Assembly (NCBI GenBank): GCA_043228905.1
Contig: JBHGNT010000022.1
Location: 4,402,001-4,466,000, forward strand
Direction: 5' to 3'
DNA: 64,000 nt
From: Azolla caroliniana
Lineage: Eukaryota > Plantae > Polypodiophyta
The position numbers and the translations under genes are program-made. Each line of letters begins with the position of its first letter. The stretch's first letter is position 1. The notes under the pieces were generated by a model, which was not told where the DNA came from, did no database searches, and saw only the letters and a program-made list of their open reading frames with translations. Positions 21,261 through 57,350 of this stretch are shown here, piece by piece.

Positions 21261-22707
21261 AATTCACCAGAGGAATTGAGACGAATTTCCGCTTCGTCAT
21301 TCCGAACCTGAAGAGCATACTTAGCACGTAATGTTGTTGGCTGATCAGTATGCCTTCAGGGGTACAAATCACTTCAATCCCGAGCAAGTAATGAAGGTCC
21401 CCTAAGTCTTTCATGTTGAATGATGTTGCTAGTTGGGACTTTACACGGCTGATTTCCTCTGGGTTGGTTCTGACGATGACCAAATCATCAACATAAAGTA
21501 AAATCCTTACCGGCCCATTCTGACATTGTCGGGTGAAGAGTGAAGAGTTCGACTTGGATGTAGCAAACCCCATCTGACGTAGGTGTTACATGATCTTAGT
21601 GTTCCAGGCACGGGGGGCTTGCTTTAATCTGTAAAGAGAATTCTTTAGTCGGCAGATAACCAACGTATTCAATCCAGACTCAAATCTAGGTGGCTACACC
21701 CTGTATACTTGTTCCTCAAGTTCTCCTTGCAGGAACATGTTCTTCACATCCATCTAGTGCAAATGCCAACCCTTTGCCGTGGCGACCACAAGCAAGACAC
21801 GGACGGTCGTCAACTTCGCGCAGTGTTGCTGCGCATAGCCGTGGACGGTCAATGTCGTGTTGCTGCGCATAGCCCTTAGTCACTAACCGGTGTCGTGAAG
21901 ATTTTCGGCAATGCTGTGAAAATTGTGAGGAACATACAAAATCGAGTGTGGTTCTTCACACACGATATGAAACAATAATAGTAAAGATACTATTTTAAAT
22001 TAGTTTAATATCTTGGTACGAAAAAATGGATGTCAGCAAGAGCTTCTGAATGCATTTTACTACACATGAAACAGACAACTAAGTGTCAAGTTATCTGAGT
22101 GTGAAGTTTGAGAAGAAGAAGAGGAAAACAAAATTGTGAGATATCCCACATTCATAGGACAACATCAGGATTCGAGCATATATAAGTAGAGCCATATCTC
22201 TTTTATATCTATGTATTTATAGCACATAAAGGTTGTGGGTTCTATAAATTAGATGAATGAATGTGGTCAAGTTATTCAAATAGGGTTTTGGACGGATCCG
22301 GACCGGGTGGACAGATGGAACTGGAGTGGACTGGACGGAACCGGATCGGATCGGTCGGGACGTACGGACCGGTCGGACAAATTCATCGGGTCGGTCGGAT
22401 AGGTGGATCATGATGCACTGTTTCTTGAAGATTTCTCAGTGTGAAAGGAACAAAATCGTCTACAGGTTCCATAGCTTCATTGGAGGTCGAAGGTGTAATA
22501 TGCAGTTAAACATTTGTAAATAGAAGACTAAAGCCTTGTAAAATTTTGTGTTTATGGTGTAAGTAAGAATTTGAACCTTGCACCTTCAAGATAGGAGACA
22601 AATTACTTACCACTAAAGCCAGTACTGAGTGCTTTCGAATTTGTATATTTTCTTTTCATATTCAGTATTTTGTAGGAAGCAAACATATAGAAACCATAAG
22701 CACAAAA

Positions 22708-22782
22708 CCATGGTTTTAGCCCATGCTTTTAGCTCGTGGTTTTAGCCCATGGTTTTAGCCCGTGGTTTTAGCCCATGGTTTT
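22708..22782. repeat. 13-bp tandem repeat ccatggttttagc in the LTR of I (also 39827-39903)
   Basis: About five to six degenerate copies are visible in both LTRs, just upstream of cctataaaa. Confidence 0.9.
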
Positions 22783-23089
22783 TGTATGGAGAGACCTATA
22801 AAATCCTATAGTTGGGCTTGTGTAAAGGGGGAAGGGATGTAAGTAAAATAAGAAACTTTTAATGAAAGATCTGAGTTATCCTAATGGTGATGTATCTTGT
22901 CTCGTAAAACTAAAGTCAAGGGTTCAATCTCTATATCTCAATCTCTCTCTCTATCTTTTCATCCATCTATCTATCTTCAATACTTTCTCGCTTACACTAC
23001 TAAAAACATTGAATCCTTCCAATACAGGACCTCGACAGTTCCGCCTCACGATCCGCAGGTAGTGATGGATTTGTCACGACATAATAGAG

Positions 23090-23107
23090 TGGTGAACTTG
23101 ACGTGAA
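23090..23107 (+). promoter_or_regulatory. Primer-binding site, tRNA-Trp type (2 mismatches)
   Basis: tggtgaacttgacgtgaa versus tggtgaacccgacgtgaa in L. The latter is complementary to the plant cytosolic tRNA-Trp 3' end ...TTCACGTCGGGTTCACCA (recalled from memory, not searched). Confidence 0.8.
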
Positions 23108-24786
23108 AGAGGCGGTAGGAAGGATCAAGTCAAGGATCGATCGATACTTGGAGATGGCATCCTCAAGCAATCAAGCAGGAGAGTTTGAAAGGATGATGCT
23201 ACTTGTCGAACAAATGATGAGATCTTGGGACAACGATGCGAGTGTGGAGAAGGCTGTCGACCGTGTCGTGGAGCTCGAGGGTCAATTTGACGAAAGGAAC
23301 ATTACGAAGTTCCTTGATTCATACGGAAGGGAGATGAATCAGAGGGACGTGTCTAAAGCGCGTCAAATCAGAAGTTTCAAGAGAGTGGTCGCCAACAACA
23401 TCCAAAGGCGCGTCATCAAGCTTGAAGAAGACAAAACATGGTCCGAGTTCAAGAAAGCAATATTAGCGGAGTTCGCGATGTAAGATTTGTCGAGGATGAC
23501 TTGACATGCCTTGATTAAGTGGATAGAGAAGAAAAATAAGAAGGTAAGCACGTCGAGGGTGTACGACGAGTTCGACCAGATGTTTAGTCTTCTCCCTACC
23601 ACGGACCAAGTGTTGCTTGATGAGGACAAGACTTTGTACTTCTTGAAAGCTCTAGATATGAAGGATAGACGAGAATTGGGGACTCTCCTCGAAGATGATA
23701 CCCAAGCAAATAGGCTTGTGGCAGATTGGATTGCAGTGAAGTGAGCATGCAAGAGGCTAAACAAGCGTCGTCAATGGGTTGATGACACCAACTTGGCAGG
23801 ATCAACCAGGGAGAAAACGAGACAACCGAAAGTAGCTGAGCAGCCCAAACAAAGGAACCCGAAAGAAAAGAAGATTGATGAGGACATCATCAAAGAATTG
23901 GCGAAAAAGTTCGAGACAGTCACGCTAGCGAACATGAATCGTTGGGGCCTCAAGGGAAAAGAACCCTTTAGATGCGTGTGGTGCGATAGCATGGACCACA
24001 TGAGAAGGGATTGCGCAATCCTTCGAGAAGCCATTCGACAAAATATCATATACATGGATGGCAACATGATCTGCTTAAGTGAGACTAGAAGACCCCTACA
24101 GGCGAATTTCGGAAGGCGGGAGCAAAGTTTTGGTCAACCGTTCTCGAGTATGAGAAGAAGGGAAAGGTCACTTCGAACGAGGTTACAGCTTGCGGACCGA
24201 AGTATGCAAATTATAACTGGATGGTCGGATCAAATGGATGATAACACCATACTCGCGGAAGTGATGTGTGACAACCACGAGGTGTTCATGGATGAAAAGA
24301 GAAAAAGAATGGAATGTTACCGGCCGGCAAGGAGTCCAAAATACGGAGTGAAGGAATTAATTAAGTATGGTTGTAAATAAGCATAGTATGGACGGACGGA
24401 CTAGAAACGGTATGCCGTTCCAGATTCGGACGGATCCCGAATAGGTGCGATAGGCACCGTTTTGTACTACGGACCGGAAACCTATTTAAAGGCCCGGAGC
24501 CCATTGTAATCGCAGCGGATAATTAATAGAGCGTATGGTGTTTATACTTCTGTGTTGATTTCCGTTCTGTACTTACTGTTATATCTTACGCGTGTAATTA
24601 ACAAAAGCGCTCTAATCGTGTAACCTACGTAAGTCGGTGTAATCGTTGAGTCATAATCCTATGCCGTAATCACCCTTTGGTGAAGTGTCTCCGCGACACC
24701 TTGTGTTAGGCCTTGTCCGGTCAGAGAATAACACAGTTTTGGCTACCACGATTCCTGCTTTCTCGCAGCGAACGACGGCTTAATGG

Positions 24787-26110
24787 ATGACGAGACATAC
24801 GCACGACCTGGTTACAGACCGAGCTCGACGCCTCGCCGAACGGCAAAGACGGCGTGAGACTTTCCAGCAAGCAGCGCACGAAATTCGCTCGGATCGTTCG
24901 TTCTCCAACGAGATCCGGAGAGTCGCGGAGGAATCTCTTCGGTTACAGCAAACTCGCGACCAGGACGACGGAAGCGGTCTAAGTAGTCTCCGGGAAACCG
25001 AACGCCTCCTCGAGGCGCTGGCAAGCGGAGAAAACGAGGCAGAAGCCTTTTCAGCCTACGAATCGGATTCCGAAGGGGGATACAGCGTGCACACGAACTA
25101 CCGGAGCAGCAACGATACCCCCGGCGGCCCGGAGGACGACGGGTCAGATACCGTGCCCACTCCAGAACCGGAACCGTTCGACCAGGGCTATCCGGAACCG
25201 CAAACGGAAGCCGTCAACCCACCAACACCGGAAGTGGAAGAAGCAAAGCCACCGACACCAACAAAAGAGCTGGTGAAGGTACCGGAAGAAGAGCCGGTGA
25301 AGGAACCGGAAAAAGAACCGGAAGAGGAACCGGAAAAAGCACCGGCAAAAGAACCGGAAGTGGAACCGGAGAGAAAACCAGAAAGATATCAACAAACGCC
25401 ACTAAACCGCGGCCTAATACTGGACGACGACATGCCGTTCCAATAGTCAAAGTATCGCGATGATCCGGACGCGGAAGCGCATGTTCATGCCTTCGAGCAG
25501 ACATGGGAAGCAAATAACGCGTCCCAGCGACTGACACCGGAGGAAGAAGAACGCTCGAAGATAGCGGAATTCGGGGTCACGTTGGAAGGACCAGCGACAC
25601 GATGGCGGCGGACGCAGGACCCGGCGACCATCACAACCTTTGCAGAATTAAAAGCAAAATTCTTGCATTTTTTCCACAAGGAGGTCGACTAGACGACAAT
25701 GGTGGGCCTGTTTTATACGATCTGACAGGAGGCAGGGGAAAACATTCCCCAATTCGTCATCCGTTTCCAACGAATGCATAGCCAGCTTGCCCGTGCACCC
25801 CCGGAGGAGGAATTACGGACGATATTTTTAAACACACTCCGGGAACCGTTACGCACGGTGTGTACGGTGATCGACTTTCGAGGAAGTACCATTGACCAGG
25901 TCATTGACCGGGTCAGAGAAATGGAAAAGTCAAGCTCATGGCTTACACTGGGAGCACTGCAACGGGCGTTACCCACCGATGAAGATCTCCGGTTCTGGCA
26001 GGCAATTCAATGCACGATCTGCTTGAATGCCGGACACTCGGCAGTGGAGTGCACCATGCGAACCCAGTGTGTGATTTGTCAATCCAAGAGTCATACAACG
26101 GACCGGTGCG
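24787..26110 (+). pseudogene. gag of J: acidic/Pro-rich N-terminus, capsid region and two CCHC knuckles; three in-frame stops and a frameshift
   Basis: One frame is continuous through TAG 25444, TAG 25690 and TGA 25723. It includes DPDAEAHVHAFEQTW, TLEGPATRW, CTICLNAGHSAVEC and CVICQSKSHTTDRC. Confidence 0.85.
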
Positions 26111-29100
26111 ATCGGACCGTTATCGGGAGTCCAACAGACGACACGAGCAATACGACAGAGACCATTCCCCTGGTTACCGAAGGCACCAGGAGGACTACGG
26201 CCGATGTTACGATCCACCACGACAGGACTACCGAAATAAAAATAAGAATAATAAGAAACGTAATTTCAAGAAAGGTGGTCACACTAGGGACCCAGAACAT
26301 GGAACCCCAAGGAGCCAACCGGCACAGAACGCACCACTCACTACGGGACCGACTCCGGCTACCAGCAATGCTGAATCCAACAATACCCGTAAAGAGTACT
26401 GCTACTACTGCAGGCAGGAAGGCCACTACAGTAACCAGTGCCCGGCAAAGAGCTACGATAAACGACCAGCAGTTAATATGGTGGTTCCGGAAGTGGCGGA
26501 TGTACAGCAAGTAACCACACGGTCGAAAGGCATGGCCAAAGAGTGGGAAACACAAGAGGCCATACGAAAACAGGCGACGGAATGGGTGAAGGAAGCCAAT
26601 GAAAGGAACGTCGCGGACGCGGAACGGCAAAAAGCGAATACCATAGGGAGTGCCGGCGGTAGCCACGCAGAAAACGAGACATGGCAAGCACTGCAAGAAT
26701 GTCAGATCACGTTGCCATTAGGAAGACTCTTGCAGCTCATGCCGCGATTTACGGAAGGACTAAAAACGGTCATGACAGACGGTGTAGCCCCACCGGCACC
26801 AGTCCTCTTCTCGAATCCGGAGGAGGGACCGACGGTGGTGGACACTAGTAGTCCGGTGATTACAGCTATTGTCAAAGGGCACGAACTTCCCGGCACAGTA
26901 ATCGATGGAGGTTCCGGGGTGAACGTAATAAGCCTCCGCACGTGTGATGCCTTGGGTATACATGAATGGGAGCCATGTCCGTTCTGGCTACGGATGGCGG
27001 ATACGAGCTCTGCACGGCCAACGGGCTTAATACGGAAATTGGAGGTCACCATAGGAGGTCACACATTTCACATCTCGGCTGTAGTGCTGCAGCTACAGGC
27101 GCAAGGCGCGTACCCACTGTTGCTGGGCAGACCATGGTTGAAAACAGCACACATCAAGCAAAATTGGCGGAAAAATATGATTACCTTCCGGCGCGGAAAA
27201 GCCAAGGTTCGGGTACCGACACAACCACGGACGAGCAACGGTAAGGAATGCACACCGCTGTATGCGGAATGCGTGAACATGCTTGAAGGGTTGGCAGACG
27301 ACGAAGAAGCCGAGTACTTGGAGGAACACCCGAAGATCGTACCACTCTTCGAGATTGACGTAGCTGAAGCCGTAGCGCCATACTTGCCGCAGCGGGACGA
27401 AACCGAACCCGAACCAGACAAAGATGCGATTCGGGAATTACGGCAAGCACAGGAAGCGTTGGAACGGGAAATGGCCATTTCCCAACGGGTAAAAACATCC
27501 CAGCTCGATGAAGTGAACCTAGGAAGCAAGGACGAATCAAAGCCGGTACACATCGCCAAAGAAATGAAGCCGGAAGATAAAGCGGCGATGATCACACTTC
27601 TCACGGAGTTTCGCGACGTATTCGCCTGGTCATACGAAGACATGCGAGGGCTGGACCCTCAATTATATCAGCATCAGATCCACTTAGGCAAGGACGCGAA
27701 ACCAGTGGCGCAAAGACGTTACCGAATGAACCCCAACTACGCCGCCAAAGTGAAGGAGGAAATCGACAAACTCCTAAGAGTGGGCTTCATCCGGCCGGTA
27801 AAGAAAGCGACGTGGCTGAGCCCCATCGTCGTCGTCCCAAAGAAGAACGGTAAAATCCGCGTGTGTGTAGATTACAGGAAACTAAATGCAGCCACAATTA
27901 CGGATGCATTCCCTCTTCCGTTCACGGATGGAGTATTGGATGTCGTCGCTGGCCATGAAGTTTATAGCTTTTTAGACGGGTTCAGCGGATACAATCAAAT
28001 CCGGATGCACCCTGACGACCAGGAGAAGACAACGTTCGTCACCGAATGGGGGGTGTTTGTGGCCGTAGTAATGATGTTCGGACTAAAAATGGCACCAGCA
28101 ACTTTCCAGCGAATCATCATGGAGATCTTCGGCGAATACATTCCAGCCTTCATGCAGGTTTTCCTGGATGACTTTGCAGTCTATAGCCGGGAAAAAGACC
28201 ATTTGCAGCACCTACGGTTATGCCTTGAAAAGTGTAGGTTATACCGGCTAAGCTTAAACCCAGCAAAATGCATCTTTGGGGTTTCAAGTGGAATCTTACT
28301 GGGACACATTGTAAGTAAGGAGGGCATTGCGGTCGACCCGGACAAAGTAAACGCGATACTAGGGGCACCGGCGCCGAAAACGGCCAAAGCACTAAGCCCA
28401 TTCTTAGGACAGATCCGGTGGCACAGCCGGATGCTCCGTCACTTGGCTGACTTGGCTACACCATTACACACCGCGGTACATCGGACACCGTTCCAATGGA
28501 CGGATACGGAGGATAAGGCATACAATGCCCTGAAGGTACTTTTGTCACAAGCACCCGTCGTGCAGCCTCCGGATTGGAGCAAGGAATTTCATGTGTTCGT
28601 TGACGCTTCCGACATCGCTATCGGCAGCGCCTTAATGCAACATACGGAGCCTAAATGGTACCGGCCGGTATATTACGCCAGCCGGAAGCTGTCCCAAGCG
28701 GAGAAGAACTATTCGACGACGGAACGGGAGGCCCTGGGCATGATCTACAGTGTAACAAAGTTTCGTCATTACCTATTGGGAAGGAAGTTCTCCTTTCATG
28801 TAGATCACTCGGCGCTCCTGTACTTAGTGTCCAAGGCGTCCCTGACCGGTAAGTTGGCCCGTTGGACCTTGCTGTTGCAGGAGTTCGAATTCGAGATTTT
28901 CCACCGGCCCGGTATCCAGCATGTCGTAGCAGACTACCTGAGCCGGTTAGAGTCCGGAGAATCAGGCGACGGAGTATCGGATGAATTCCCGGACGCAGAG
29001 TTATTCCGTATCACCCCGGAAACGGCAGCGGACGACACGGTGGCATCAGAAGATAGGTGGCTGACAAACATGCACCAGTTCCTAAGCACGGGCCTGCCAC

Positions 29101-30380
29101 CGGAGGAAATGTACCGGGACGAGAGGAAACGACTGGCGGTGCAGAGCCGCAATTTCTATCTGTTACGGGACACTCTCTACCACAAGGGAGCAGATGGAAT
29201 ATGGAGACGGGCAGTCCGTAGTGACGAGAAACAAGTAATCTTACGGGAAGCACACTGTGGGGTTGCCGGAGGACACTATGCCGGGGAAGCGACGGCAAGG
29301 AAAGTATGGCAGAGCGGCTTATGGTGGCCCACGACGTTAAAAGACGCCGTCAAGTATGCTAAGGAATGTGACCTATGCCAACGAATGGGCCAGCCTACAG
29401 AGCAAGCACGGATGCCACACCAACCGGTACTTCCACTAGAGCCATTCCAGAAGTGGGGGTTGGATTTTGTCGGACCGTTCAAGCCACCGGCAATGAGAAC
29501 GGGTAATCGTTATGTCATCGTGGCAACAGATTATTGCACTAAATGGGTGGAGGCTAAGGCCTTGAGAGACAACACCGCGTCATCCACAGCAAAATTCCTG
29601 TACGAAAACATTTGGTGCCGATATGGATGTCCGATTGAGTTAATCAGCGACCAAGGAGGGCACTTCCTCGGCCAGGTAGTTGAAAGCTTAACAACGTTCT
29701 ATGCCGTGGTCCATAAACGGAGCACACCGTACTACCCACAAGCAAACGGGTTAGCAGAGTCAACCAACAAAACGCTCCAGAACATTCTCCGCAAAATCGT
29801 CAATGAAAACCGGACGGACTGGGATACAAAGCTCCATAGCGCGCTATGGGCGTACCGAACGGCATACAAAACAAGTATCCGGACAACGCCGTTCCGGTTA
29901 GCGTTCGGCTTAGAGGCGGTCATGCTGGTGGAATTTCAGGTACCAAGCTTACGGATCCAACTACGGGAACGGCTGAATGAAAAGGAATCGGAGGAAATGC
30001 GGCTAGCAGCACTATGCGAACTGGAGGAGCAATGGCTTGCCAGCATCCTACACATGGAACTAGAGCAACGACGACGAAAAGCGTTCGTTGACCGTCACCG
30101 GAAAGGTAATGAAAAGATGTTCGAAATCGGAAAGCCGGTGCTAGTATTCCAAACGAGGATGGGCAAGATGCCGGGTAAACTCCGGTTTAGATGGACAAGC
30201 CCGTATTGGCTGACATGGGAATACAACGGGTCCTATCAGTTAGGGACACTTGCCGGTGAAGTGCTAGGCAAGTGGGTCAACGGATTTAGACTAAAGCCCT
30301 ATAAAGGACCGATGCCAAGTGAAGGGACCTACGGATGTGTAAGATCACATACCATCATTAAAAATAAAATAAATAAATAA
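26010..30380 (+). CDS. pol: Pol polyprotein of J (third CCHC knuckle, aspartic protease, RT, RNase H, integrase); open frame
   Basis: Motifs CYYCRQEGHYSNQC, VIDGGSGVN, CVDYRKLN, FLDGFSGYNQI, FLDDF, VDASD..YASRKL..TEREAL, H..GH..C..C, WGLDFVGP and YYPQANGLAESTNK. No chromodomain. The listed start is not a true start, because the frame is normally fused to gag. Confidence 0.95.
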   Translation: MHDLLECRTLGSGVHHANPVCDLSIQESYNGPVRSDRYRESNRRHEQYDRDHSPGYRRHQEDYGRCYDPPRQDYRNKNKNNKKRNFKKGGHTRDPEHGTPRSQPAQNAPLTTGPTPATSNAESNNTRKEYCYYCRQEGHYSNQCPAKSYDKRPAVNMVVPEVADVQQVTTRSKGMAKEWETQEAIRKQATEWVKEANERNVADAERQKANTIGSAGGSHAENETWQALQECQITLPLGRLLQLMPRFTEGLKTVMTDGVAPPAPVLFSNPEEGPTVVDTSSPVITAIVKGHELPGTVIDGGSGVNVISLRTCDALGIHEWEPCPFWLRMADTSSARPTGLIRKLEVTIGGHTFHISAVVLQLQAQGAYPLLLGRPWLKTAHIKQNWRKNMITFRRGKAKVRVPTQPRTSNGKECTPLYAECVNMLEGLADDEEAEYLEEHPKIVPLFEIDVAEAVAPYLPQRDETEPEPDKDAIRELRQAQEALEREMAISQRVKTSQLDEVNLGSKDESKPVHIAKEMKPEDKAAMITLLTEFRDVFAWSYEDMRGLDPQLYQHQIHLGKDAKPVAQRRYRMNPNYAAKVKEEIDKLLRVGFIRPVKKATWLSPIVVVPKKNGKIRVCVDYRKLNAATITDAFPLPFTDGVLDVVAGHEVYSFLDGFSGYNQIRMHPDDQEKTTFVTEWGVFVAVVMMFGLKMAPATFQRIIMEIFGEYIPAFMQVFLDDFAVYSREKDHLQHLRLCLEKCRLYRLSLNPAKCIFGVSSGILLGHIVSKEGIAVDPDKVNAILGAPAPKTAKALSPFLGQIRWHSRMLRHLADLATPLHTAVHRTPFQWTDTEDKAYNALKVLLSQAPVVQPPDWSKEFHVFVDASDIAIGSALMQHTEPKWYRPVYYASRKLSQAEKNYSTTEREALGMIYSVTKFRHYLLGRKFSFHVDHSALLYLVSKASLTGKLARWTLLLQEFEFEIFHRPGIQHVVADYLSRLESGESGDGVSDEFPDAELFRITPETAADDTVASEDRWLTNMHQFLSTGLPPEEMYRDERKRLAVQSRNFYLLRDTLYHKGADGIWRRAVRSDEKQVILREAHCGVAGGHYAGEATARKVWQSGLWWPTTLKDAVKYAKECDLCQRMGQPTEQARMPHQPVLPLEPFQKWGLDFVGPFKPPAMRTGNRYVIVATDYCTKWVEAKALRDNTASSTAKFLYENIWCRYGCPIELISDQGGHFLGQVVESLTTFYAVVHKRSTPYYPQANGLAESTNKTLQNILRKIVNENRTDWDTKLHSALWAYRTAYKTSIRTTPFRLAFGLEAVMLVEFQVPSLRIQLRERLNEKESEEMRLAALCELEEQWLASILHMELEQRRRKAFVDRHRKGNEKMFEIGKPVLVFQTRMGKMPGKLRFRWTSPYWLTWEYNGSYQLGTLAGEVLGKWVNGFRLKPYKGPMPSEGTYGCVRSHTIIKNKINK

Positions 30381-30721
30381 AAAAAAAAAAAAAATCATTA
30401 AAAATCGAGGTATGAACGGACGTGAAAGGAAGGAGCGAAAAGGTACGTAGTGGGCATTTAAGAGCCGCCACATTACTTAATACTAAATTGGTACACGACG
30501 TGCGCATGCTCGAAAAAGGCGCCAAGACGCACAGAGAAAAAGCAGAACGCATGGAGACCTTTTTTTTTCGCGAGCCAAGAAGCACAGAAGCACCAAGGCG
30601 GTGGAAGCTTAGCAAACGCGAACCTGCACTCAGAGAACCCCCACGTTCGGAACTCTCTCTCTCTCACTCTCACTCTCATCACCACTCTACCTCGCCATCT
30701 TTCCTCGACCTCGAAGCAAAC

Positions 30722-33391
30722 ATGGAACCACAAACGCTGTCGAAAGCGGCCAGGAAATGGCTCAGGCAACACGGACTGGAGGGGTTCTTGACCATCATGG
30801 AGGCACCACCGCACAAAGAAGCCGACCGGGTCAACAAGGAGCTCGACACAGAAGTCATCACCGAGGAAGCGATCCATGCGCTAACAGGCCTTCCGGAGGG
30901 AGGTATTTTTCAGATAGATAACCCATCCTCGGAGCAACTCATCCGATATTTCGGTGAGTACTCTCTAGCCGGCAAAGGCTATCGAACGCAGGGCGGCGAA
31001 GATCCGCTATTCAGGGAGATAGCTCGAGTGCTCCATGAGTACGGCCACGTGTACCCCCGACCCCCTGTCATGCCAAAAAATCGGGCAGGGATGATCATAG
31101 CCACCTATGAAGGGATCAAGGTGGATTGGCCGGTGTTGATTGCAGACGGTTTGTGCGCGGCAATCGACACGGTACGAGGAAAGGACGGCAAGGAGGGCCG
31201 GAAGCTGTGGCATGCCGTAGCTCAGTGGATAACATTGCTCGCGCCGCCGGTCAAGACCGTCCAGCCAAAGAAGCGGCCAAGATTATCGGAAGGAAGCACC
31301 TCGAAACCCGCGTCCAAACGACAGCAGCTGCTGGCGTCGAAGGCAACGAAAGGGAAGAAACGGCTCCCAGAACCGGAGGAGGTGTCACCGATCCGACCCG
31401 TTAAGATAACCATACGGCGACCGGGACAGAAGGAACCGGAACCCTTGACGGCACAGATACATGCCGTTACCCAGGAAGAGGAAACGGAGGAGCCTGTAGA
31501 GCACCTCCAACGACGGTCAAGAAGTAGGACCGCCGGGACAGCGGGGGAGCGTTCGGACCTGCAAAAGGAAGAAACGCCCCCAACTCAACCTGAGCAAACC
31601 ACAAGGGAGGAACCGGAACCGGTGCGTATAGAACCGGCCTTGTTGACTTCTATACAAGAAGTCATTCCAACGGCTCCGGAGACGGCGAGAACCGGAACTC
31701 AACAGTCGGCGAGCCCAACCAGCACACCCAGCGGCCAAGGAGTAGAACCAGAACGGCAGATACAAGCACTCAGGCCAGACAATTCCACAGTGAACGAGCC
31801 GACCCGACCAGTACAGCAGCAAGGCACCAGTAGCATGTGGCTACGGTGGGTAGGCGAGCAGATCGCCGGAGCGGTCGAGTACATAGAGGCGGAGGAGAGA
31901 GCGCACCATGAACGGTTGCTCGTCACAACCGTAGATCTAGAGACGGCCCGGTCCAGAATCCGGAGCCTTGAACAAGACTTGGACAGGGTCACAAGGGAAA
32001 TGGCTCAATTGGCTTTGACAACACAAGTCCAAGCACCGGTGACTCCGGGCAATGTACAGAATAAAGCGTCAGATCAACATGTACATAGCAATCAGACCCC
32101 GGCAACGGAAACCGTTCCGGAGAGAAATGCGGCACAAGCCCAAGAGCTTGCGGACTTAAAGGATGAGCTAGCTGCCCAAGAAGCGCTGAGGAGCCGCGAA
32201 AGAGAGTTGAAGACGGCAGCGGAGGCAGAACTCAAAAAGACTGCTGAGAATCTACGCCGGGCCGAGGAGAGCTTACGAAAAGGCCACCAAGTGTACGACC
32301 GGCTCAAGGAGGAAAAGGAGAAAATGCTGCAAGAGAATGACAGGCTCCGGAGAAACGCCGAAACAGAAGTAGAGCGCCTGAAAGAGGAACTCCGGCAGCT
32401 AAAGGACCGGGAGGACCGGAACCATCGCCAGATCAACGGCAAGCTCAAACAAAAAACGGAGGAATTTGAGCACTTGCACCAGGAGTATAAACGGTTGCAA
32501 ACGGAGCACAAGGAACGGACGGATGAGCTTCGGCAAGCAGTTGATCGGACCGCAACGGCATACGCTAATGAACAAGCGGAAACCAGAAGATGGTTGGAAG
32601 AGGCGGAGAAGGTTCAGACAGAGCTCCTCAGGCAACAACAGGCGGAAAGAGAAAGAGCGGCGGAGGTACTACAGAGGCTGCAGACAACATATCAAGGGCA
32701 GCTGACGCGCTACAGAGAGCAGGCGGAGGATACGGCTAATCTCATCAAGCAGTTGAAGGAGGAACGACAAGTTGTGGAAAGTAGAGCGCAAATGGGAGCA
32801 AGTCGCATCCAGGATATCATGCGGGCCTGGTTGAAACAGACTAAGAGCTTGATCGACAACGGTTCCGTCAAATGGTGGACCAAGTGGGCCCCGAACGCGG
32901 CGGAACTCCAATTGCTCCGGGCCGACGTAGAGAACCGGCGGAAGGAGGGAGATGATTGCTATATGCTGACTTCCGAAGACTTCACAGGCATAAGAGATGA
33001 GCTGGCCGAAGACTTTCAAGCCTTGGCAGAGGACCAACTAGGGCAAGTTCGGCAACTTGTAGCTCAGCTGGACGACGACAGGCATGAGGCGCAGATCCAG
33101 TTTGAAAGCTACGAGAGGTCGCGGATCCGGGAAGAGAAAGCACGAGAACCGGTTACGGTCAACCTCAGTGATGAGGAACCGTTACTGGAAGGAGACCGGA
33201 CCGGAAGCAGTCAAACGGGGATGCCAGAGTCAGAGAAACAAACGGAGCAGCCGCCTATAGAGCAACCAGAGCAGTCTCAGTCCCAACCGCAACCACAGCA
33301 GCAGCAGCAAGCACAGCCGCAACAACCACAACCGGAAGAACACTTGGAAACTCTGGAACAAAGTATTTTGGACAATTTGGGTGAACAATGA
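30722..33391 (+). CDS. Extra ORF of J (~889 aa from ATG 30722; frame open from 30422): globular N-domain, basic NLS-like segment, disordered linker, long coiled coil, Q/P tail
   Basis: An uninterrupted frame between pol and the 3' LTR. It contains IHALTGLPEGG and GIKVDWPVLIAD, then PKKRPR..KRQQ..KGKKR, and a long E/R/K/L/Q heptad-like region. Confidence 0.85.
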   Translation: MEPQTLSKAARKWLRQHGLEGFLTIMEAPPHKEADRVNKELDTEVITEEAIHALTGLPEGGIFQIDNPSSEQLIRYFGEYSLAGKGYRTQGGEDPLFREIARVLHEYGHVYPRPPVMPKNRAGMIIATYEGIKVDWPVLIADGLCAAIDTVRGKDGKEGRKLWHAVAQWITLLAPPVKTVQPKKRPRLSEGSTSKPASKRQQLLASKATKGKKRLPEPEEVSPIRPVKITIRRPGQKEPEPLTAQIHAVTQEEETEEPVEHLQRRSRSRTAGTAGERSDLQKEETPPTQPEQTTREEPEPVRIEPALLTSIQEVIPTAPETARTGTQQSASPTSTPSGQGVEPERQIQALRPDNSTVNEPTRPVQQQGTSSMWLRWVGEQIAGAVEYIEAEERAHHERLLVTTVDLETARSRIRSLEQDLDRVTREMAQLALTTQVQAPVTPGNVQNKASDQHVHSNQTPATETVPERNAAQAQELADLKDELAAQEALRSRERELKTAAEAELKKTAENLRRAEESLRKGHQVYDRLKEEKEKMLQENDRLRRNAETEVERLKEELRQLKDREDRNHRQINGKLKQKTEEFEHLHQEYKRLQTEHKERTDELRQAVDRTATAYANEQAETRRWLEEAEKVQTELLRQQQAERERAAEVLQRLQTTYQGQLTRYREQAEDTANLIKQLKEERQVVESRAQMGASRIQDIMRAWLKQTKSLIDNGSVKWWTKWAPNAAELQLLRADVENRRKEGDDCYMLTSEDFTGIRDELAEDFQALAEDQLGQVRQLVAQLDDDRHEAQIQFESYERSRIREEKAREPVTVNLSDEEPLLEGDRTGSSQTGMPESEKQTEQPPIEQPEQSQSQPQPQQQQQAQPQQPQPEEHLETLEQSILDNLGEQ

Positions 33392-35645
33392 AGGGGCCGA
33401 GAAGGGTTCGACGTACAAGGTACTGTCCCACGGGCGTGCCATGTGTTACCGGCCGGCAAGGAGTCCAAAATACGGAGTGAAGGAATTAATTAAGTATGGT
33501 TGTAAATAAGCATAGTATGGACGGACGGACTGGAAACGGTATGCCGTTCCAGATCCGGACGGATCCCGAATAGGTGCGATAGGCACCGTTTTGTACTACG
33601 GACCGGAAACCTATTTAAAGGCCCGGAGCCCATTGTAATCGCAGCGGATAATTAATAGAGCGTATGGTGTTTATACTTCTGTGTTGATTTCCGTTCTGTA
33701 CTTACTGTTATATCTTACGCGTGTAATTAACAAAAGCGCTCTAATCGTGTAACCTACGTAAGTCGGTGTAATCGTTGAGTCATAATCCTATGCCGTAATC
33801 ACCCTTTGGTGAAGTGTCTCCGCGACACCTTGTGTTAGGCCTTGTCCGGTCAGAGAATAACATGGAAGGGCAAGAAAACCCATCAAAAAGACATGAAATA
33901 AGGAGCGCGAAAAAGAAAGAAGATGCAGAAACGAGTCGAGATTTACAAATGGAAGAAGGAGTCTCAAACTGGAAAGGGGAGTCGGGCAAACGAGTCAAAC
34001 AAACGGTTCGGTCCGTGAGGGTTGATGTCGAAAACCCTGCTCGAAAGACGAGAACTATGCCTACCTATAAGCTAAGGTCGGACATAGAGCAGACGACAGA
34101 TCTGAAGAAGATTCTCAAGGAACATGTTCTTGATAGCCATGTGCTCGGCATTACAAAGAAGGAGTAAAAATCCATAACGACGGCAAGGGATGACGTCGAT
34201 GAAGATATGTTGGACAACCACTATACTTGACCTCATTAGGCACGAGCGACAACGGAGACGATGGTGAAGATCGTGGAGAAGAAAGAGACTGTGGTAGCCT
34301 TGATTGACCATGGCTTGGAGATCAACCTCATGTCAACCGAGTTCTACAAAAACAGGAGATGGCCAATTAACACAAACCACGGATGGAATATTTGAGTGGC
34401 AACAAAGGCCACAGAGGACTTGTATGGAGCTTGTGCCAATGTTAAAGTCACAATTGGGGATGTGGAGATGGATCAACACTTCTTCGTGCAAGAATCGGCT
34501 TCGCATCCTGTCATCCTAAAATGAGTTGGAAGAGAGAATCTTAAAATGATCAAGCCAGGTAGGAGCTGGGTTTTGGCCGACGGTCTTCGAGTGCGAGAAA
34601 AAAGGAAAAATTGATTCAGAGGATCTAAAACATGTTGATTGGAACATCGACGAGTTACCGGATGGTCAGATGTAGTCGACGATAACACAAGCTTTGCGGA
34701 GGTTGTGTGTGACAACTATGAAGCTCTTGTCGAAGAGAAGAGGAAAAGAACCAGTGAAGAAGATGGGACATTAAAGCGTCCCAACACGAGGAACGCAAGG
34801 AAAGAAGGGCAAGCCCAAGCTACGCCAAGAAAAGAGGTTGGAGAAACAAGCATGATGCCCAGTGGATCGGGCCAACCTGCTCGGATGGAAGTCGATGAAT
34901 CAAAGAAGAAAGGAAAAGAATGAGCAACACCGACTTACAAGCTAAGGAGGGACATAGAACAAACAATTGACTTACAGAAGGTCCTTGAGGAGAAGGTTTT
35001 AGACAGTCATGTCGACCTTACTTTGAGAGAATTGCTTGGGATCGCGAAGAAGGAGTTCCATGATACTATTGTGGACCTTATTAAGTGGAAGCGGCAACAA
35101 TCTGATGAAGAGGAGGTGAAAACAAGTGCCATAACCATGGCAAGATCGGAAGAGGAGGAGGAAGAAGAAGTGGTGGCAGATAGCTATTACTCTCGACCTC
35201 ATTAAGCAAGAGTGACAATGGAGACATCGGTGAAGGTCGGGGAGAAGAAAGAGACCGTGGTAGCCTTGATTGGCCATGGCTCAGAGATCAACCTCATGTC
35301 GACCGAGTTCTACAAGAAAGGAAGATGGCCAATTAACACAAACCACGGATGGAAGATTCGGGTGGCAAGAAAGGCCACAGAGGACTTGTATGGGGCTTGT
35401 CCTAATGTTAAAGTCACGATTGGGGATGTGGAGATGGATCAAAAATTCTTCGTGCAAGAATCGGCTTCACATCATGTCATCCTAGGACAACTGTATATCA
35501 CATCATCCTGGATGGAGACCAAGGTGTTCGATAATGGAGCAGCCTTCGCATTACTCAAGAGTCTTGACAATCAAAGTTCTGTTCAATTCCTAATGGTGTG
35601 ATCTAATCATGAAAGAAATCAAGATAGTCTTGGGGCCGAATCCTC

Positions 35646-35708
35646 AAATTTTTAGAGCGGACTATTGAAGCATGGGGCACAAATAGTCCGAGCAATCACA
35701 AGTCCCCA
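35646..35708 (+). promoter_or_regulatory. Putative -1 programmed ribosomal frameshift signal (slippery heptamer plus pseudoknot) in element I
   Basis: A_AAT_TTT_TAG ends the protease frame, and the -1 frame runs open into the ORF at 35730. Stem cggactatt/aatagtccg; loop tgggg pairs with downstream cccca. Confidence 0.8.
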
Positions 35709-38700
35709 CAAGAAAGTAGAGCGCGTGGATTGCAAGGAGAAGCAACATGTGTCACACCTAGTGGTGCATGTAAACTAGTACTACCCAACAAAAAGGACAA
35801 GCGTCGGATACAACACTTCGAGAAGATGCTTAAAGAAGAAAACATAATAGAAGAAGAAGAATTCGTGACTTATATTATGGAAGAAGCCTCATTTAACGAC
35901 ACCATCGGCGAAATCGAGGAAGTCGTGGACTTGAGCTATCTTCACAATCAACACGTGATTTTGGTTAACTCTATCAACATGTACGCTATCATTGATGAAT
36001 ACCATCAAGGCATCTTGATGGAGGAAGCTGGAGTCAACACAAAATATAAAATGGTGCACAAGAAGATCAAACCAATTGCGGTTCTGCTACAGAAAGATAG
36101 CTGGCAAAAGCTGAAGGAAGTTGCAAAAGATCCAGGTTTAAGGAATCCAAAGACAATTGGTCATGTCTTCATTGACAAGACGAAAGGGAAGTTACGAGTT
36201 GGAAGGGAGTATTTTCTCCTCACTTAAGAGGAGCGAATGTTCCGCAGAATGCTTGAAAGACACGAGAAGGCTTTCACATTTATTCCATAGGAAATCAGAT
36301 GTGTTGATCCAAAGACAGTAGAACCGATGGTGATCTTCACGGTGCCACATGTGCCTTGGAATTTGAAATCGATACCGGTTTCGAAAGCACACCTACCGAA
36401 GTTGATTGAGTTGTTAAAGGAGAAGGTGAATATGGGAATTCTGGAATCGTCGAACGCTCCTTATTCTAATAGGTGGTTCATGGTGCCAAAGAAGAATGGA
36501 TCATTGCGATTCATCGAAGATCTTGAACCCGTCAACAAGGTGACAATTCGGAATGCCGGAATTGGTCCGAGTGTGGATGAATTTGCTGAAGCGTTTGGGG
36601 GCCGGTCCATCTACTCCATTCGTGATCTCTATTGTGGATACAATCAATTCCAGTTGGCGATCGACAGTTGTGACATTACAACCATGAGGACTCCGATCGG
36701 GATTGTACGAATGTGTACCTTACCTAAAGGTGCAATGAACTCGGTGGCTCATATAATGAATGCCATGAACAAGGTCTTGAAGGATTGCATCTCGGGCATC
36801 ACAATGTCATTCTTAGATGATATTCCGATAAAAGGATGTTCGGATGAGGAGAAGGATGAATCTAAAGATAAGGAAGGGTGTAGAAAGTTCGTCGTGGATC
36901 ATATGAAAGATTGCGAGAAGGTGCTCCAAAGGCTCGAAGATGCGAATTTGACATTTTCGGGAGAAAAATCCGCATTCGCGCAACCGGAGATCTTGGTGAT
37001 AGGTCACTTGTGTGGAGCATACGATCGGAAGTCTTCACCTTCCAAGCTGAATGCGATCCATGACATGAAAGAAGAATGTGTAACCTAAACAGAGGTTCGA
37101 AGGTTTCCTGGAGCATGCACGTTTTATCATATCTGGATACCGCACTATGCTCATGTCGCGGAGTCATTATATGGATTGTTAAAGAAACGAATGAAGTTCG
37201 AATGGCGAGACGGGCATAAAAACACAATGTGAAGATTGAAGAAACTACTTCTTGAAGCTCGAGCACTAAGAAAGGCCGACTATACCGAAGGGAAGCCGAT
37301 TTATGTGACTGTAGATACAAGCCCAACCGGAATCCGGTGGGTCATCAACCAAGAAGGAGAAGATGATGCGCGGTATGCCATCCGGTTCGGAGCAAAGGTT
37401 CTCAACGAATGACAACAAGGATACACCCAAGTCAAGCAGGGACTTTGGGGTATTGTGTCTGCAGTGAAGATGGATAAAGACTACCTGATCGGGTCGGAAG
37501 TGATAATCGAGACAGATTGTCTCCCAATCCTTGGGATGATCTCAAGATGTGCGACACCAGATCTAACAATGCTAAGGTGGATTGTCTATATCAAGTCTTT
37601 AAACCCAAAGATCCGCCACATTGCAGGAAAGAAGAACGCCATGGATGACATGCTGTCGAGGGCAAGATTTGAGAATGAAAGTGACTTGGTTTGGGAAGAT
37701 GAAGACGTCACCCTCTACTTCTTCAAGATGGCTCTACTATCACCGGAAGACAAGGGTTGCTAACCCTCTATGCCTTCAACGAGAACGAGTACGAAGGAGA
37801 GTGGTTACTAATCGGCAGATTCTTAAGAACAATGATGGCAGACGCTTCGTTGACGAAGGAGGAGGCTCTACGAATCCAGAAGAAAACTTATCAATACTTC
37901 CTGAAGGGAGGATACCTCTGGCGACACCCAAAGAGAAGGATAGGAATGCCACGTCGAGTGGTGGTGAAGAAAGAAGAGCAAGTGATGCTGATGAAGGAAT
38001 TCCACGAGAGTCTTTGGCCAGGTCATAGAGGAACATGGGCGACGTTCCAAAAATTGAAGGAGAAGTACTAGTGGCCAAGCATGTACAAAGATGTCCTCCA
38101 TTTCGTGTCCACATGCGAAACTTTCCAAGTACATTCTAACATACGTCATTGTGATGAATTACGGTCGACATACCCACTCACCATACACTTCAAATGGATG
38201 GTGGATCTGGTCTCCATGCCAATGGGAGTGGGGCAAATGAACTACTTAGTACTGGCAAGAGAAGATTTGACAAATCAAGTGGAAGGACGGGCCTTGGCAA
38301 ATAAGATGACGTCAACTGTTTGGAAATTTCTACTCGAAGAGGTTGTCTACCGATACGGATGTGTGGGGAAGATAGTGGTCGACCGAGGGGAGTTGGATGC
38401 ACACGAAGCAACGAAGCTCTTCGAATGACTAGGTGTGAAGGTCTCCCTCATGATTGCCTACAATATAGAAGCGAATGGGAAGATCGAGCGAGGACATGGA
38501 CCAATCGTCAAAGCCATCGTACGAGCATGCAACGGTCGAGTCGGGAACTGGCCACGACTATTTCCCTATGCCTTGTGGGCCTATAGAACTACACACAGTT
38601 CAGTGACAGGCTATACGCCAATAGAGCTTATGTATGAACAAAAGCCAGTAATGCCCATCGAAAGGACGATCATCTAATGGGTAGCGATACCATGGGAGAA

Positions 38701-39010
38701 CGAGATGAGCCGAGAAGAATTATTAACGGCACGGATAAGGTAGCTTGAAAGAAGGCCTGAAGATTTAGAAAAAGCACGAAAGATGATGGAGGCAGCTTGA
38801 GTGAAGAACAAGATTCGGTTCGAAAAGACACATCGATTGCATCCCAAGAAGATCGAAGAAGGAGATTGGGTATTGGTCTACGACAACAACCTTGATAATC
38901 AACAAAGGACAACAAGAAAGTTCGCAAGAAGATGGTTCAGACCGTATGTGGTGACAAGTGCCAATGACAATGCCACATACCACCTTGCGGAGCTAGACGG
39001 ATCAGGACGA
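35652..39010 (+). pseudogene. pol (RT-RH-INT) of element I, multiple stops and frameshifts
   Basis: ORF fragments at 35730, 36327, 37455, 37757, 38081, 38435 and 38801 carry RT, RH and INT motifs. Confidence 0.9.
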
Positions 39011-42000
39011 CGTGCAGTTTGGTGGGTGTGGATGTCGTGAAGATTTTCGGCAATGGTGTAAAAATTGCGAGGAACATACAAAATCGAGTGTAGTTCTTCA
39101 CACACGATATGAAACAATAATAGTAAAGATACTATTTTAGATTAGTTTAATTTCTTGGTATGAAAATATGGATGTCATAAAGAGCTTCCGAATGCATTTT
39201 CTACATGTGAAACGAACAACTAAGTGTCAAGTTATGTGAGTGTGAAGTTTGAGAAGAAGAAGAGGAAAACAAAACTGTGAGATATCCCACATAGATATAG
39301 CAATATCAGGACTCCAGAGTACATAAGTAGAGCCATATCTCTTTTATATCTATGTGTTTAGAGTACATAAAGGTTGTGGGTTCTATAACTTAGAGGAATG
39401 GATGTGGCCAAGTTATTCAAATAGGCTTTTGGACGGATGGCACTGGGCAGACGGATGAGACCGGATCGGATCGGTCGGGACGAACGAACGAAAATTCATC
39501 GAGTCGGTCAGATAGGGTGATCACGATGCACGGTGTCTTGAAGATTTCTCAGTGTGAAACGAACAAAATCGTCTATAGGTTCCATCGGTTCATTGGAGGT
39601 CGACTGAAGGTGTAATATGCAGTTAAACATTTATAAATACAAGACTAAAGCCTTGTAAAATTTTGTGTTTATGGGGTGTAAGTAAGAATTTCAACATTGC
39701 ACCTCCAAGATAGGAGACAAATTACTTACCACTAAATCCACTATTCAGTGCTTTAGAATTTGTATATTTTCTTTTCATATTTAGTATTTTGTAGGAAGCA
39801 AACATATAGAAACCGTGGGCACAAAACCATGGTTTTAGCCCAAGGTTTTTAGCCCATGGTTTTAGCTCATGGTTTTAGCCCCTTCGTTTAGCCCATGGTT
39901 TTTGCATGGAGAAACCTATAAAAGCCTATAGTTGGGCTTGTGTAAGGGGGGATGGGATGTAAGTAAAAAAAGAAACTCTTAATCAAAGATTTGAGTTATC
40001 CTAATGGTGATGTATCTTGTCTCGTAAAACTAAAGTCAAGGGTTCAATCTCAATCTCTTTCTCTCTCTTCATCCATCTATCTATCTTCAATACTTTCTCG
40101 CTTACGCTACTAAAAACATTTAATCCTTCTGGTTCAGGACCCCGGCGTTTCCGCCTCACGATTCGCACGTAGTGAAGGATTTTTCACGACACCGGGCATT
40201 GTATCGGTTGACGGAGAAACCGATGTTGTACTTCACCTTGTACACCCATCTGCATCTGATTGACGTTACTCCCTTCAGAACGTCAACCAGATTCCATGTT
40301 TCGTTTTCCATGCATCTCTTCCTCAAAAGCGGCATGCCAATTTGCATCGTTTGCCACTTCTACATAGCTCTCTAGCTCACGGATTTCCGCCACCTTTGTC
40401 ATGTATACATAATGATGCACCATGTAGTCATTATATCCTTATCGAACTACAGGATATGTCTGGTGGAGAGATTGGCGCAATTTCTACTCTACCGATTTGA
40501 TGGTCCTCTTGGCCGACTCCGACCTCTTCTTTGGAGGTCCGTCTTCATGCTTTCGGGAGTTCGATTTGCTCCGATCCAACTCTTCCTTGTCTGTTCCATA
40601 CTCCGGCATCTTCATCTTTCCTTTCTCCTTGCGTGTAAGCTGTCTCCTCGGTTTCCGACGCGGGGACAACACGACCGAGTTTCCACTACTCGCAGGCTCA
40701 TCATCCCGTTGGTCTTTCCGACTCAACTCTTCATTCGGCCCGCTCAGCCGTAATGAGATCAGACTCTCTTCTAGAGCTCTGATTTCTTCTTCGTTCAGAG
40801 GCATTTTGGCCTCATTGACCTCATTCTCAGATATCAAAATGGAGTTGTCGGGGGTTAGAGACGAGGGCAAGTACCATGACGCCGACTCATCCAACACGAC
40901 ATCTCAACTCACCCGAACTTGTTTGGTTCGGGGGTTATAACATTTATAACCCTTCTGCTCATTTGAGTAGTTGATGAGAATGCACTTCTTGCCTTCTCCT
41001 TCGACACATGCACATAGGCAATGCTGCCGAACACCCTCAAGTGTCCCTATTAATAATTAGGTAATTAATTAGGGTTAATTGGTGACTAATTATGTGAGTA
41101 GTTAAGCAGCAAAAGATTATGTGATATGTGTGTGAGAGGAAGATACACTTACGAACAATAATGTAATTGGGGGATGATTAACAAGAGTGTAGCTAAAGAC
41201 CTTTCCTATATAGGAATTAGCATCATCAAAATAAAAAATACCCACAATGAGGTATATATACATCTCATGTGCAAAGGCGCACATGTGTGAGTAGAATATA
41301 GTTACAAACGTGTAAGTCCTATATTAAATGAACATGGGAGTGGAGGATCTACAATGTATCTCACTCAAGTACAAAATCCTATTTAAGGCTTTAAGGTCAA
41401 CATACTAACTAGATTCTATCTAGGTAACTACTAAGTTACGTGTGTTGATTAGCTAACTATCTCTAGTTGAGCTTGATATCTCAACACAGCCTCTCAAGGT
41501 CAAGTGTGAGGAGTCTAATGTTCGCTTTGGATTCCGTCGGCTTTGTCGGCTTCCGTATGGCCTTTGGCTTTCTTCGGCCTTTTCGAGGCAATCTCGGTTC
41601 CTCCCCCTCAAGTCGGTGACAAAGGCTTGTAGTGTGAAATGGGTGAAGGCCGACTGCTTCCATCCATCATGGGGCATGAGCCACTTTTGTAGAGCTCTCG
41701 GGCTATGGTTCGGCCACTACCTTCATCGGGAAGGCATAATGATGGGCCATATACTCGTTGTAGCCGAGCTGAGTGATCGGGTTCTTCTCTCGAGATGAGC
41801 ATCAAAGTTTTTCTCTCTCCGATGTGAGCGCCTTCTTTACTCTGGGTGTCCACATGATGGGTACACCAAACTCACTATCGTTGGGGTGGTTGACTTTGTA
41901 TTCAGGCATCTTCCCTTTGCCTCTGTCTGATTTTGGCCGTGACATGCTTTGGTTGTGTGAAGGCTCGGGTGGTCCACTTAGATCAATGGAGCTTGGATTG

Positions 42001-56583: not shown

Positions 56584-57317
56584 CACATACTCGAGGTGCC
56601 TTTCAAATATCAGAGTATCCACATGCCCGCGTTCTAGTGCTCTTTTCCGGGATTGCTCATGTACAGACTCACCATTTCGACTACATATCCAATATCCAGT
56701 TGGGTACACACCATTGCGTACATCAAGCTCCTGGATAGCTTGCAGTTTCCCGGGAGTGTCAATCCGACCGGTGTCGTGAAGATTTCCGGCTATAGTGTGA
56801 AACCGGGGTGGAATAGGCAAGTCGGTGGTGTGCAACATGTGCACATGTATACTAGGATATGGTGTATAGAAAGAGAGGGGAAATTTTTGTCCCACATTGT
56901 AAGGTCCCTCCCTCCTTGGGCTATAAAAGGAAGGGAGGGGTCACTTATGAAGGGGTTGCCTATTTTGTGCGAGTAAGGTATACCACTTAGTCTAGGGTTC
57001 TCCCTCTTCCCATTTCGTTTTAGGGTTAGGGTTTCGGTTAGGGTTTTCTTCTTGGGTTTCTCTTTAGGGTTTTCGGATAGTCATTTTGGTGCGGCCATGG
57101 CAGCCACCATTGTTGTAACCATTCGTTGTTTTAATATAACTTGTTGAGCATCTTGCCTCCGCCGATCCCTCCTTCGATGTCGTGGTCTTATTCTTTCCTC
57201 TTCTCCTCTTGAGCTAAGCCTCCATATCATGTCCTATTCTTTCTCCTCCACTCCCTAGTCCAAGACCCCCGTGGTCCCGCCCCTTCTACACGCACGCGCG
57301 TAACAACGCGACATCTT

Positions 57318-57335: not shown

Positions 57336-57350
57336 GGGTGGCAAGGGAGC

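Follow-up and report, generated by a model that had tools for sequence, protein, structure and literature searches.

How does a plant LTR retrotransposon make its polymerase when the Gag-protease frame closes on a stop codon and RT follows in the −1 frame? Most plant LTR elements are described as having a single ORF or as being spliced. A sequence-only reading of element I, which lies in the 64,000-nt stretch of Azolla caroliniana DNA analysed here (the window), had proposed a −1 frameshift with an H-type pseudoknot placed after the protease.

Element I in the window is a dead copy

The window copy comprises the following features.

21887–21890, + strand: left target site duplication CCGG, NCGN type
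21891–23081, + strand: 5′ LTR, 87.6% identical to 39033–40191
23090–23106, + strand: primer binding site of the tRNA-Trp type, with two mismatches in this copy
23082–24314, + strand: 5′ portion of the internal region, presumably a decayed gag, split by the nested element
24315–33862, + strand: younger gypsy element nested in and interrupting element I (LTRs 99.5% identical, TGGAA duplication)
34181–34518, + strand: partial internal duplicate of the protease region, 84–89% identical to 35147–35484
35209–35652, + strand: aspartic protease, end of ORF1 (Gag-PR frame), with a stop at 35599 in this copy
35628–38990 (end approximate), + strand: ORF2 in the −1 frame, with linker, RT (RVT_1 in the window), RNase H and integrase
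39033–40191, + strand: 3′ LTR
40192–40195, + strand: right target site duplication CCGG

The gag label of 23082–24314 was given from its position and a weak Retrotrans_gag match in an intact copy. The nested gypsy element at 24315–33862 lies outside the frameshift signal. A protease family profile matched Ty3 protease (E = 0.0035), and of 26 relatives, 14 gave a Pfam Asp_protease_2 match at E ≤ 0.01. ORF2 of the window copy carries several stops; the full domain set was seen in an intact copy. Because the protease frame is closed by a stop 47 nt upstream of the heptamer and the RT frame by another at 36225, the window copy is dead and unable to use its own frameshift site, which consists of the following parts.

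35646–35652, + strand: slippery heptamer AAATTTT (A_AAU_UUU; G_GAU_UUU in the family)
35653–35655, + strand: ORF1 stop TAG, adjoining the heptamer
35658–35666, + strand: 5′ strand of stem 1, CGGACTATT, with a conserved core at 35659–35666
35673–35677, + strand: 5′ strand of stem 2, TGGGG, within the loop of stem 1
35682–35690, + strand: 3′ strand of stem 1, AATAGTCCG
35704–35708, + strand: 3′ strand of stem 2, CCCCA

The combination of heptamer and 9-bp stem occurs once in the window when both strands are searched, and block-shuffled windows gave 0.05 such matches per + strand. Nested-only folding, in which the knot is not scored, recovered stem 1 with z-scores of −2.95 (35655–35712) and of −1.3 and −1.8 in longer windows. 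Both stem motifs of the sequence-only reading are present where it had placed them, and so is A_AAU_UUU at 35646–35652; as the family site, however, this heptamer fails, since not one of the 29 genome copies closest to the window copy carries AAATTTT. Of the 495 differences between the window copy and an intact copy, 222 are G>A or C>T, so the canonical appearance of its heptamer most likely stems from decay, and we rejected A_AAU_UUU as the working site, being a private variant in a dead copy. The proposed 5-nt spacer and 9-bp stem likewise exist in the window, whereas the conserved stem begins after 6 nt, because no more than 11 of 28 relatives can form the outer C–G pair. The −1 frame is indeed open, from 35628 to 36227, but position 35730, previously taken as the beginning of the pre-RT ORF, is a TTG rather than a start codon, and this frame has its first ATG at 35826. 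In the window copy the gap between stem 2 and the 3′ strand of stem 1 is 4 nt, wider than the 0–1 nt of textbook H-type knots. No Rfam family was matched (best E = 1.2), and no relative was found in a viral contig collection.

Site, stop and frame offset are conserved across the family

We assessed the signal in samples that included the 29 genome copies nearest to the window copy; 58 metagenome loci with both domains, retained from 80 after 22 without an upstream protease match were dropped; and 28 non-redundant relatives used for stem, stop and linker counts. The nearest genome copies carry GGATTTT (25), AGATTTT (3) or GTATTTT (1) in place of the window heptamer. RT lies in the −1 frame relative to the protease in 55 of the 58 metagenome loci, and in none of these loci, all with readable DNA, do protease and RT share one open frame. 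A slippery-type heptamer stands at the end of the protease in 57/58 (GGATTTT 47, GGATTTC 5, others 5), its U-rich part being partly selected by a search pattern that required a U-run. Locus L117 lacks a heptamer, and locus L130 is frame-broken. G_GAU_UUU departs from the strict X_XXY_YYZ pattern by one P-site mismatch; strict forms occur in L102 and L109. The heptamer begins with a G at a synonymous third codon position; 27 of 28 relatives retain this G, while the nine preceding bases vary freely.

A stop directly follows the heptamer in 23 of the 28 relatives and varies among TAG, TAA and TGA. Beyond the site, the first 55 codons of the −1 frame are free of stops in 27/28, compared with 1/28 and 0/28 for the other frames; despite this open frame, conservation of the linker peptide is poor. 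Of 20 long-ORF genome copies, 5 keep both ORFs fully open, and the site-plus-stem pattern matched the genome 2,950 times (reversed control, 0).

Protease and RT do occur in one chain in 25 of 120 homologous proteins among the matches listed, all of them Riccia gene models. These models omit differing stretches at the protease–RT junction, and we read them, known here solely as protein models, as predicted introns that bridge the frameshift. Frameshifting would thus account for gene finders inventing introns at this junction.

A co-varying H-type pseudoknot is predicted downstream of the site

Aligned without gaps and anchored on the heptamer only, stem 1 was 92% paired across the 28 relatives, versus 26–45% in 12 other registers. 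Pairing with own partners exceeded pairing with swapped partners for stem 1 and for stem 2 (16.0 versus 13.5), and 0 of 10,000 permutations reached it in either case, although these permutation values overstate independence, as the relatives are mutually related and most come from one assembly series. In a MAFFT alignment of 34 sequences, two-sided changes were present in seven of the eight stem 1 pairs, with a covariation of 0.526 as against 0.254 when shuffled and 0.06–0.17 when slid. Stem 2 has 4–8 bp in all 28 relatives, but only 13 of them have a stem 2 that individually outscores its shuffled versions (p ≤ 0.05). The spacer measures 6 nt in 15 of 25 scored relatives and 5 nt in 8, within the 5–9 nt typical of the 3′ structure of a −1 frameshift signal. 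The downstream structure is predicted to be an H-type pseudoknot. The alignment of family copies thus bore out the proposed signal: conservation extends to the frame offset, the place of the heptamer, the stop and the two stems, and compensatory changes are present.

A −1 slip very probably gives access to Pol

Frame offset, site, stop and covariation, together with an ORF2 that is open and under constraint, support, at the family level, the earlier proposal that Gag-PR is the abundant product and that RT-RNase H-integrase is made by recoding. On this sequence evidence, the family very probably makes RT-RNase H-integrase by a −1 slip at G_GAU_UUU, aided by the predicted pseudoknot. Most ribosomes would halt at the stop and release Gag-PR; a minority, held up by the knot 6 nt downstream, would slip back by one base, with Asp tRNA re-pairing from GAU to GGA and Phe tRNA from UUU to UUU, and would go on for about 1,160 more codons. 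Because the −1 frame and the stems are conserved and a conserved splice acceptor or start is lacking, Gag-PR ends at the site and RT-RNase H-integrase is most likely reached through the −1 shift. In-frame readthrough of the stop was rejected, as the protease and RT frames differ.

Ogre-like splicing that takes out the stop and fuses protease to RT in frame would explain why Riccia gene models connect the two parts, and linker codons 20–60 are weakly constrained (dN/dS 0.27–0.95). We nonetheless consider it very unlikely: the ORFs are not separated but overlap, no AG 3′ of the site is conserved in 70% of 30 elements, which leaves no conserved acceptor, and the linker remains free of stops in the −1 frame in nearly all relatives. 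The Riccia joints, moreover, fall at varying places, and an intron leaves the heptamer and stems unexplained. Contigs from four sequencing runs, probably derived from DNA and hence silent on splicing or expression, contain no GT-AG joint across the junction.

Separate translation of ORF2, through reinitiation after the stop, initiation at an internal site or a subgenomic RNA, with the stems serving this or packaging, is favoured by the presence of some ATG in ORF2 ahead of RT in every relative. The first such ATG, however, has no conserved position, falling anywhere between codons 3 and 111, whereas ORF2 is open all the way back to the heptamer, which is itself kept at synonymous positions. 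In retroelements Pol normally enters the particle via Gag, a route that Pol made without Gag would lose, and we regard independent translation as highly improbable. That the frame break is mere decay and the stems chance, as the decayed window copy and its atypical heptamer might suggest, is next to impossible and is refuted by young copies that retain the break with both ORFs open, by the prevalence of the offset among metagenome loci and by the occurrence of the break, with compensatory changes, in relatives down to 44% protease identity.

One living branch has probably converted the signal to a −2 slip

Unexpectedly, and out of sight of the sequence-only reading, a branch nested among the −1 elements carries AG_GUU_UUU as its site, has a spacer shortened by one base and keeps the same stems. 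It forms one clade with a support of 100/100 (L124, being short, was omitted from the tree). Among 30 RT-selected genome copies, 27 have RT in the −2/+1 frame; the derived branch combines an RG_GUU_UUU site with an ORF in the −2 frame. Most genome copies have a stop in the −1 frame; in all 29 RT-selected copies that hold the junction it comes right after the site. The branch is recently active, as 11 of 20 copies examined have LTRs of 99% identity or more, and its Pol is under purifying selection (L089 versus L095: dN/dS 0.056 at dS 1.1, dS being saturated in several pairs).

AG_GUU_UUU is the PRRSV −2/−1 site (accessible text of PMC7618472). A −2 slip is optimal at spacers 1–2 nt shorter (PMC3458567; accessible text of PMC7618472), a rule that derives from engineered U6A constructs (PMC3458567). 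An A-to-U change in the site together with loss of one spacer base would place Pol in the −2 frame, and the same knot probably drives a −2 slip at AG_GUU_UUU, judging from the sequences.

An alternative is that Pol of this branch is reached by a +1 slip or another route. The +1 and −2 slips lead to the identical frame, and copies with UUU_UAC (L095 and 4 of 19 junction-selected genome copies read) permit perfect +1 re-pairing. The commonest and youngest copies, however, read UUU_GAC, at which a +1 slip gives a G–G wobble mismatch, whereas a −2 slip re-pairs the A-site perfectly. Identity with a known −2 site, the spacer shortened by one base with the knot retained, and the gap-free alignment of −1- and −2-type ORF2 peptides from the site onward also speak against it, and we hold this alternative to be unlikely, if a serious one. 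A −2 slip remains our preferred reading. On balance, the whole chain, from a post-protease, pseudoknot-driven −1 signal to its conversion in one living branch, through a single substitution and the deletion of one spacer base, into an RNA-structure-only −2 slip for Pol, seems reasonably likely, the branch representing a single evolutionary event.

If true, an essential polymerase would here be made by a natural −2 slip that relies on RNA structure only, and evolution would have put the mRNA-tension model of slip direction to the test. The matched natural −1 and −2 cassettes, sharing one knot, would make the −2 spacer rule directly testable, and, for work on plant ribosomes, the family would offer dozens of frameshift cassettes that are natural and co-vary.

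Element I has Phygy traits

Element I has the traits of a Phygy-like Ty3/gypsy non-chromovirus, an assignment based on the following structural traits. The 4-bp target duplication is CCGG in the window and NCGN in family copies with both ends readable; the primer binding site corresponds to the 3′ terminus of host tRNA-Trp genes at 6/6 loci checked; and −1-type copies with both ends read measure 7.76–8.42 kb. Pfam detected RT, RNase H and integrase only, with no chromodomain, extra RNase H or extra ORF, and the 3′ LTR follows within about 80 nt of ORF2. According to the accessible text of the Neumann et al. 2019 survey (PMC6317226), Phygy shares the NCGN duplication, the tRNA-Trp primer site and a size range (7,656–9,968 bp) that includes element I, and likewise has no chromodomain, extra RNase H or extra ORF. 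Its coding layout is listed there as ND, an entry that an alpharetrovirus-like Gag-PR / RT-RH-IN design would fill. The family is large and likely comes from mosses, and its relatives extend to liverwort gene models, unlike Phygy as surveyed.

Comparison with known recoding systems

Our search of literature listings and abstracts, which covered sources other than subscription journals and bioRxiv supplements, returned no description of the −1 or the −2 frameshift proposed for this family. The accessible text of PMC7466625 makes no mention of frames, and that of PMC12786077 and PMC5580714 contains no plant pseudoknot case. In its accessible part, a 2016 review (PMC5009743), summarising a 2003 survey (Gao et al. 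2003), lists only +1-frame plant cases, and it names phage Mu, arteriviruses and Trichomonas virus 1 as natural −2 cases.

Among plant elements, Ogre and Retand (Tat) likewise break between GAG-PROT and RT, but Ogre has a spacer or intron at the break and Retand an in-frame stop, unlike the element I family; Selgy and Tcn1 have overlapping ORFs as here, but the overlap precedes the protease (all from the accessible text of PMC6317226). The −1 heptamer G_GAU_UUU itself is found in an umbravirus, pea enation mosaic virus, where it works in plant cells and a nearby stop matters for efficiency; this RNA virus differs in that the stop comes 3 nt later and the 3′ stimulator is another (PMC5009743, accessible part).

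Alpharetroviruses (RSV/ASLV) place the protease within Gag and reach RT and integrase by a −1 slip with a pseudoknot, as here (accessible text of PMC12789967 and PMC5009743). For the derived branch, the arterivirus nsp2TF signal has the same eight bases, AG_GUU_UUU, and the same immediate stop in the −1 frame (PMC7618472 and PMC6675879, accessible parts). Arterivirus slippage depends on nsp1-beta and PCBP bound to a C-rich motif 11–14 nt away (PMC6675879 and PMC5009743, accessible parts), whereas the branch has a conserved RNA knot, its paired stem starting 5 nt downstream, and no C-rich, protein-bound stimulator of that type. The shifted product of the branch is the essential Pol, unlike nsp2TF; the branch thus works like an arterivirus-type −2 signal but is not a member of that class. 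The alpharetroviruses, for their part, are retroviruses of birds and not plant Ty3/gypsy elements, and the RSV/ASLV heptamer, A_AAU_UUA, differs from that of the family.

A conserved slippery-type site separates protease and RT in element I relatives

The sequence-only reading had placed a −1 frameshift after the protease of element I, a Ty3/gypsy copy, and the heptamer, stop and stem motifs that it described were all located correctly.

21891–40191, forward strand: element I, with CCGG duplication and tRNA-Trp primer site
35646–35652, forward strand: slippery site
35658–35666 and 35682–35690, forward strand: arms of stem 1
35673–35677 and 35704–35708, forward strand: arms of stem 2

The combination of a heptamer and, 5–9 nt downstream, a perfect 9-bp stem occurs once in the window versus 0.05 times per shuffled strand. 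The copy itself is dead: stops interrupt both frames (the protease frame 47 nt upstream of the slippery site, the RT frame at 36225), identity between its LTRs is down to 87.6%, and it has taken up an insertion of a younger element. The heptamer sequence A_AAU_UUU is private to the window copy, shared by none of the 29 nearest other copies, and the family sequence is G_GAU_UUU, present in 25 of these 29 and in 19 of 20 copies picked for long RT frames.

Intact family copies are ~8 kb long. Their ORF1 weakly matches Gag, DUF4100 and aspartic protease, and their ORF2 encodes RT, RNase H and integrase; of 20 genome copies with long ORFs, five have both open throughout, with an overlap of ≤28 nt. 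A metagenome scan retained 80 of 163 related loci, 58 of which encoded protease as well as RT. In 55 of these, RT was in the −1 frame relative to protease, and in three, one of them a broken copy, it was in the −2/+1 frame; none of the 58 carried the two in one frame, in agreement with the frame break first proposed. The protease frame ended at a slippery-type heptamer in 57/58 loci, using a search pattern that demanded a U-run. The first G of the heptamer, a synonymous position, was kept in 27 of 28 non-redundant relatives; in this set the nine preceding bases were variable, and a stop of some kind came directly after the heptamer in 23. The site-plus-stem pattern yielded 2,950 genome matches and its reversed control none.

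The end of ORF1 is probably a protease, judging from weak but mutually consistent matches to the Ty3 Gag-Pol protease (E 0.0035) and to Pfam Asp_protease_2 (14 of 26 relatives). In 22 of 26 relatives the triad is D-H-G and in the other four D-S-G, with otherwise strong conservation (alignment A3); the window copy has G-H-G (35260–35285). By structural traits alone, element I matches the Phygy clade as described in PMC6317226, where Neumann et al. (2019) list the Phygy coding layout as not determined; a moss host would follow from this clade.

Past the site, the first 55 codons were stop-free in the −1 frame in 27/28 relatives (other frames, 1/28 and 0/28), despite poor peptide conservation in this linker. 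Codons 60–130 of ORF2 are under purifying selection (dN/dS 0.25–0.48 in five pairs free of saturation) and returned no Pfam match; this N-terminal region, which lies between protease and RT, may be a domain that has yet to be named. ORF2 starts ~130 residues ahead of a conserved TKYKTV motif (window 35800–36050; alignment A4). Neither a splice acceptor conserved among relatives downstream of the site nor a conserved ATG in ORF2 was found. Among the 120 homologous proteins listed of 173, the protease region is absent in 95; it is present in the other 25, all Riccia gene models, whose gaps at the junction vary; we read these gaps as predicted introns.

Two stems are predicted to form a pseudoknot

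With sequences anchored on the heptamer alone, ungapped, stem 1 was 92% paired versus 26–45% in 12 other registers. The stem also withstood a covariation check: in a MAFFT alignment of 34 sequences, 7/8 pairs showed two-sided changes, and the score was 0.526 versus 0.254 shuffled and ≤0.17 slid. Stem 2 spans 4–8 bp, scores 16.0 with its own partner versus 13.5 swapped, and is wholly replaced in sequence in distant relatives (e.g., loci L098, L105 and L109); it was individually significant in 13/28 relatives, and kinship among relatives inflates the stem permutation results. The two stems are predicted to form a pseudoknot.

Pseudoknot-assisted −1 frameshifting is well established. Beside the observed layout, conservation, covariation and selection of the frameshift region stands a mechanism in which most ribosomes translating Gag-PR would stop there, while a fraction would pause at the predicted knot and slip to yield Gag-PR-RT-RH-IN. 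The slipping fraction would set the Gag-to-Pol ratio, as reported for alpharetroviruses (PMC12789967); the protease-before-shift layout is already known from RSV. Our literature search returned no such frameshift described in plant LTR elements, Phygy included, nor a natural switch from −1 to −2 driven by RNA structure.

A derived branch probably uses a −2 slip

Two related loci, L089 and L095, carry CAG GTT TTT followed 3 nt downstream by a stop; both stems are kept, shifted one base towards the site, and ORF2 is in the −2/+1 frame.

L089:2835–2905, L095:2497–2567; also L131–L190: derived-branch junctions, AG_GUU_UUU, spacer one base shorter

The motif occurs 83 times in the genome (control, 0). 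Of 30 copies picked by RT similarity alone, 29 retain the junction, and in all 29 the −1 frame meets a stop immediately past the site; RT is in the −2/+1 frame in 27, and the other two have lost sequence between site and RT by deletion. These elements form one clade (support 100/100), which a midpoint-rooted tree places inside the −1 elements. The branch is recently active in the genome; among 20 copies fetched whole, LTRs are ≥99% identical in 11 and both ORFs open in five. Pol is under purifying selection (L089 versus L095, dN/dS 0.056, dS 1.1).

AG_GUU_UUU is described as the −2/−1 site of PRRSV (PMC7618472), and the optimal spacer for −2 slips is reported to be 1–2 nt shorter than for −1 slips (PMC3458567). 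The branch probably reaches Pol by a −2 slip; a +1 shift or another route is the less likely alternative.

Other features of the window and genome

A G-rich tract with pyrimidines precedes the 3′ LTR (39015–39032 in element I) in both branches, so a tRNA-like replacement of this tract is absent from the family. Downstream of pol, the young gypsy element nested in element I carries a 991-codon open reading frame (30416–33391), with no Pfam match and weak Atlas matches to plant proteins (best 0.78). Another young element (56772–61405; LTRs 99.3% identical) has 299- and 602-codon ORFs with no Pfam matches and is possibly non-autonomous. Matches to the tRNA-Trp 3′-end motif cluster in genome G000 at C8 near 17.80–17.82 Mb (spacing ~1.2 kb) and at C16 near 4.99–5.11 Mb, possibly as tandem tRNA arrays.
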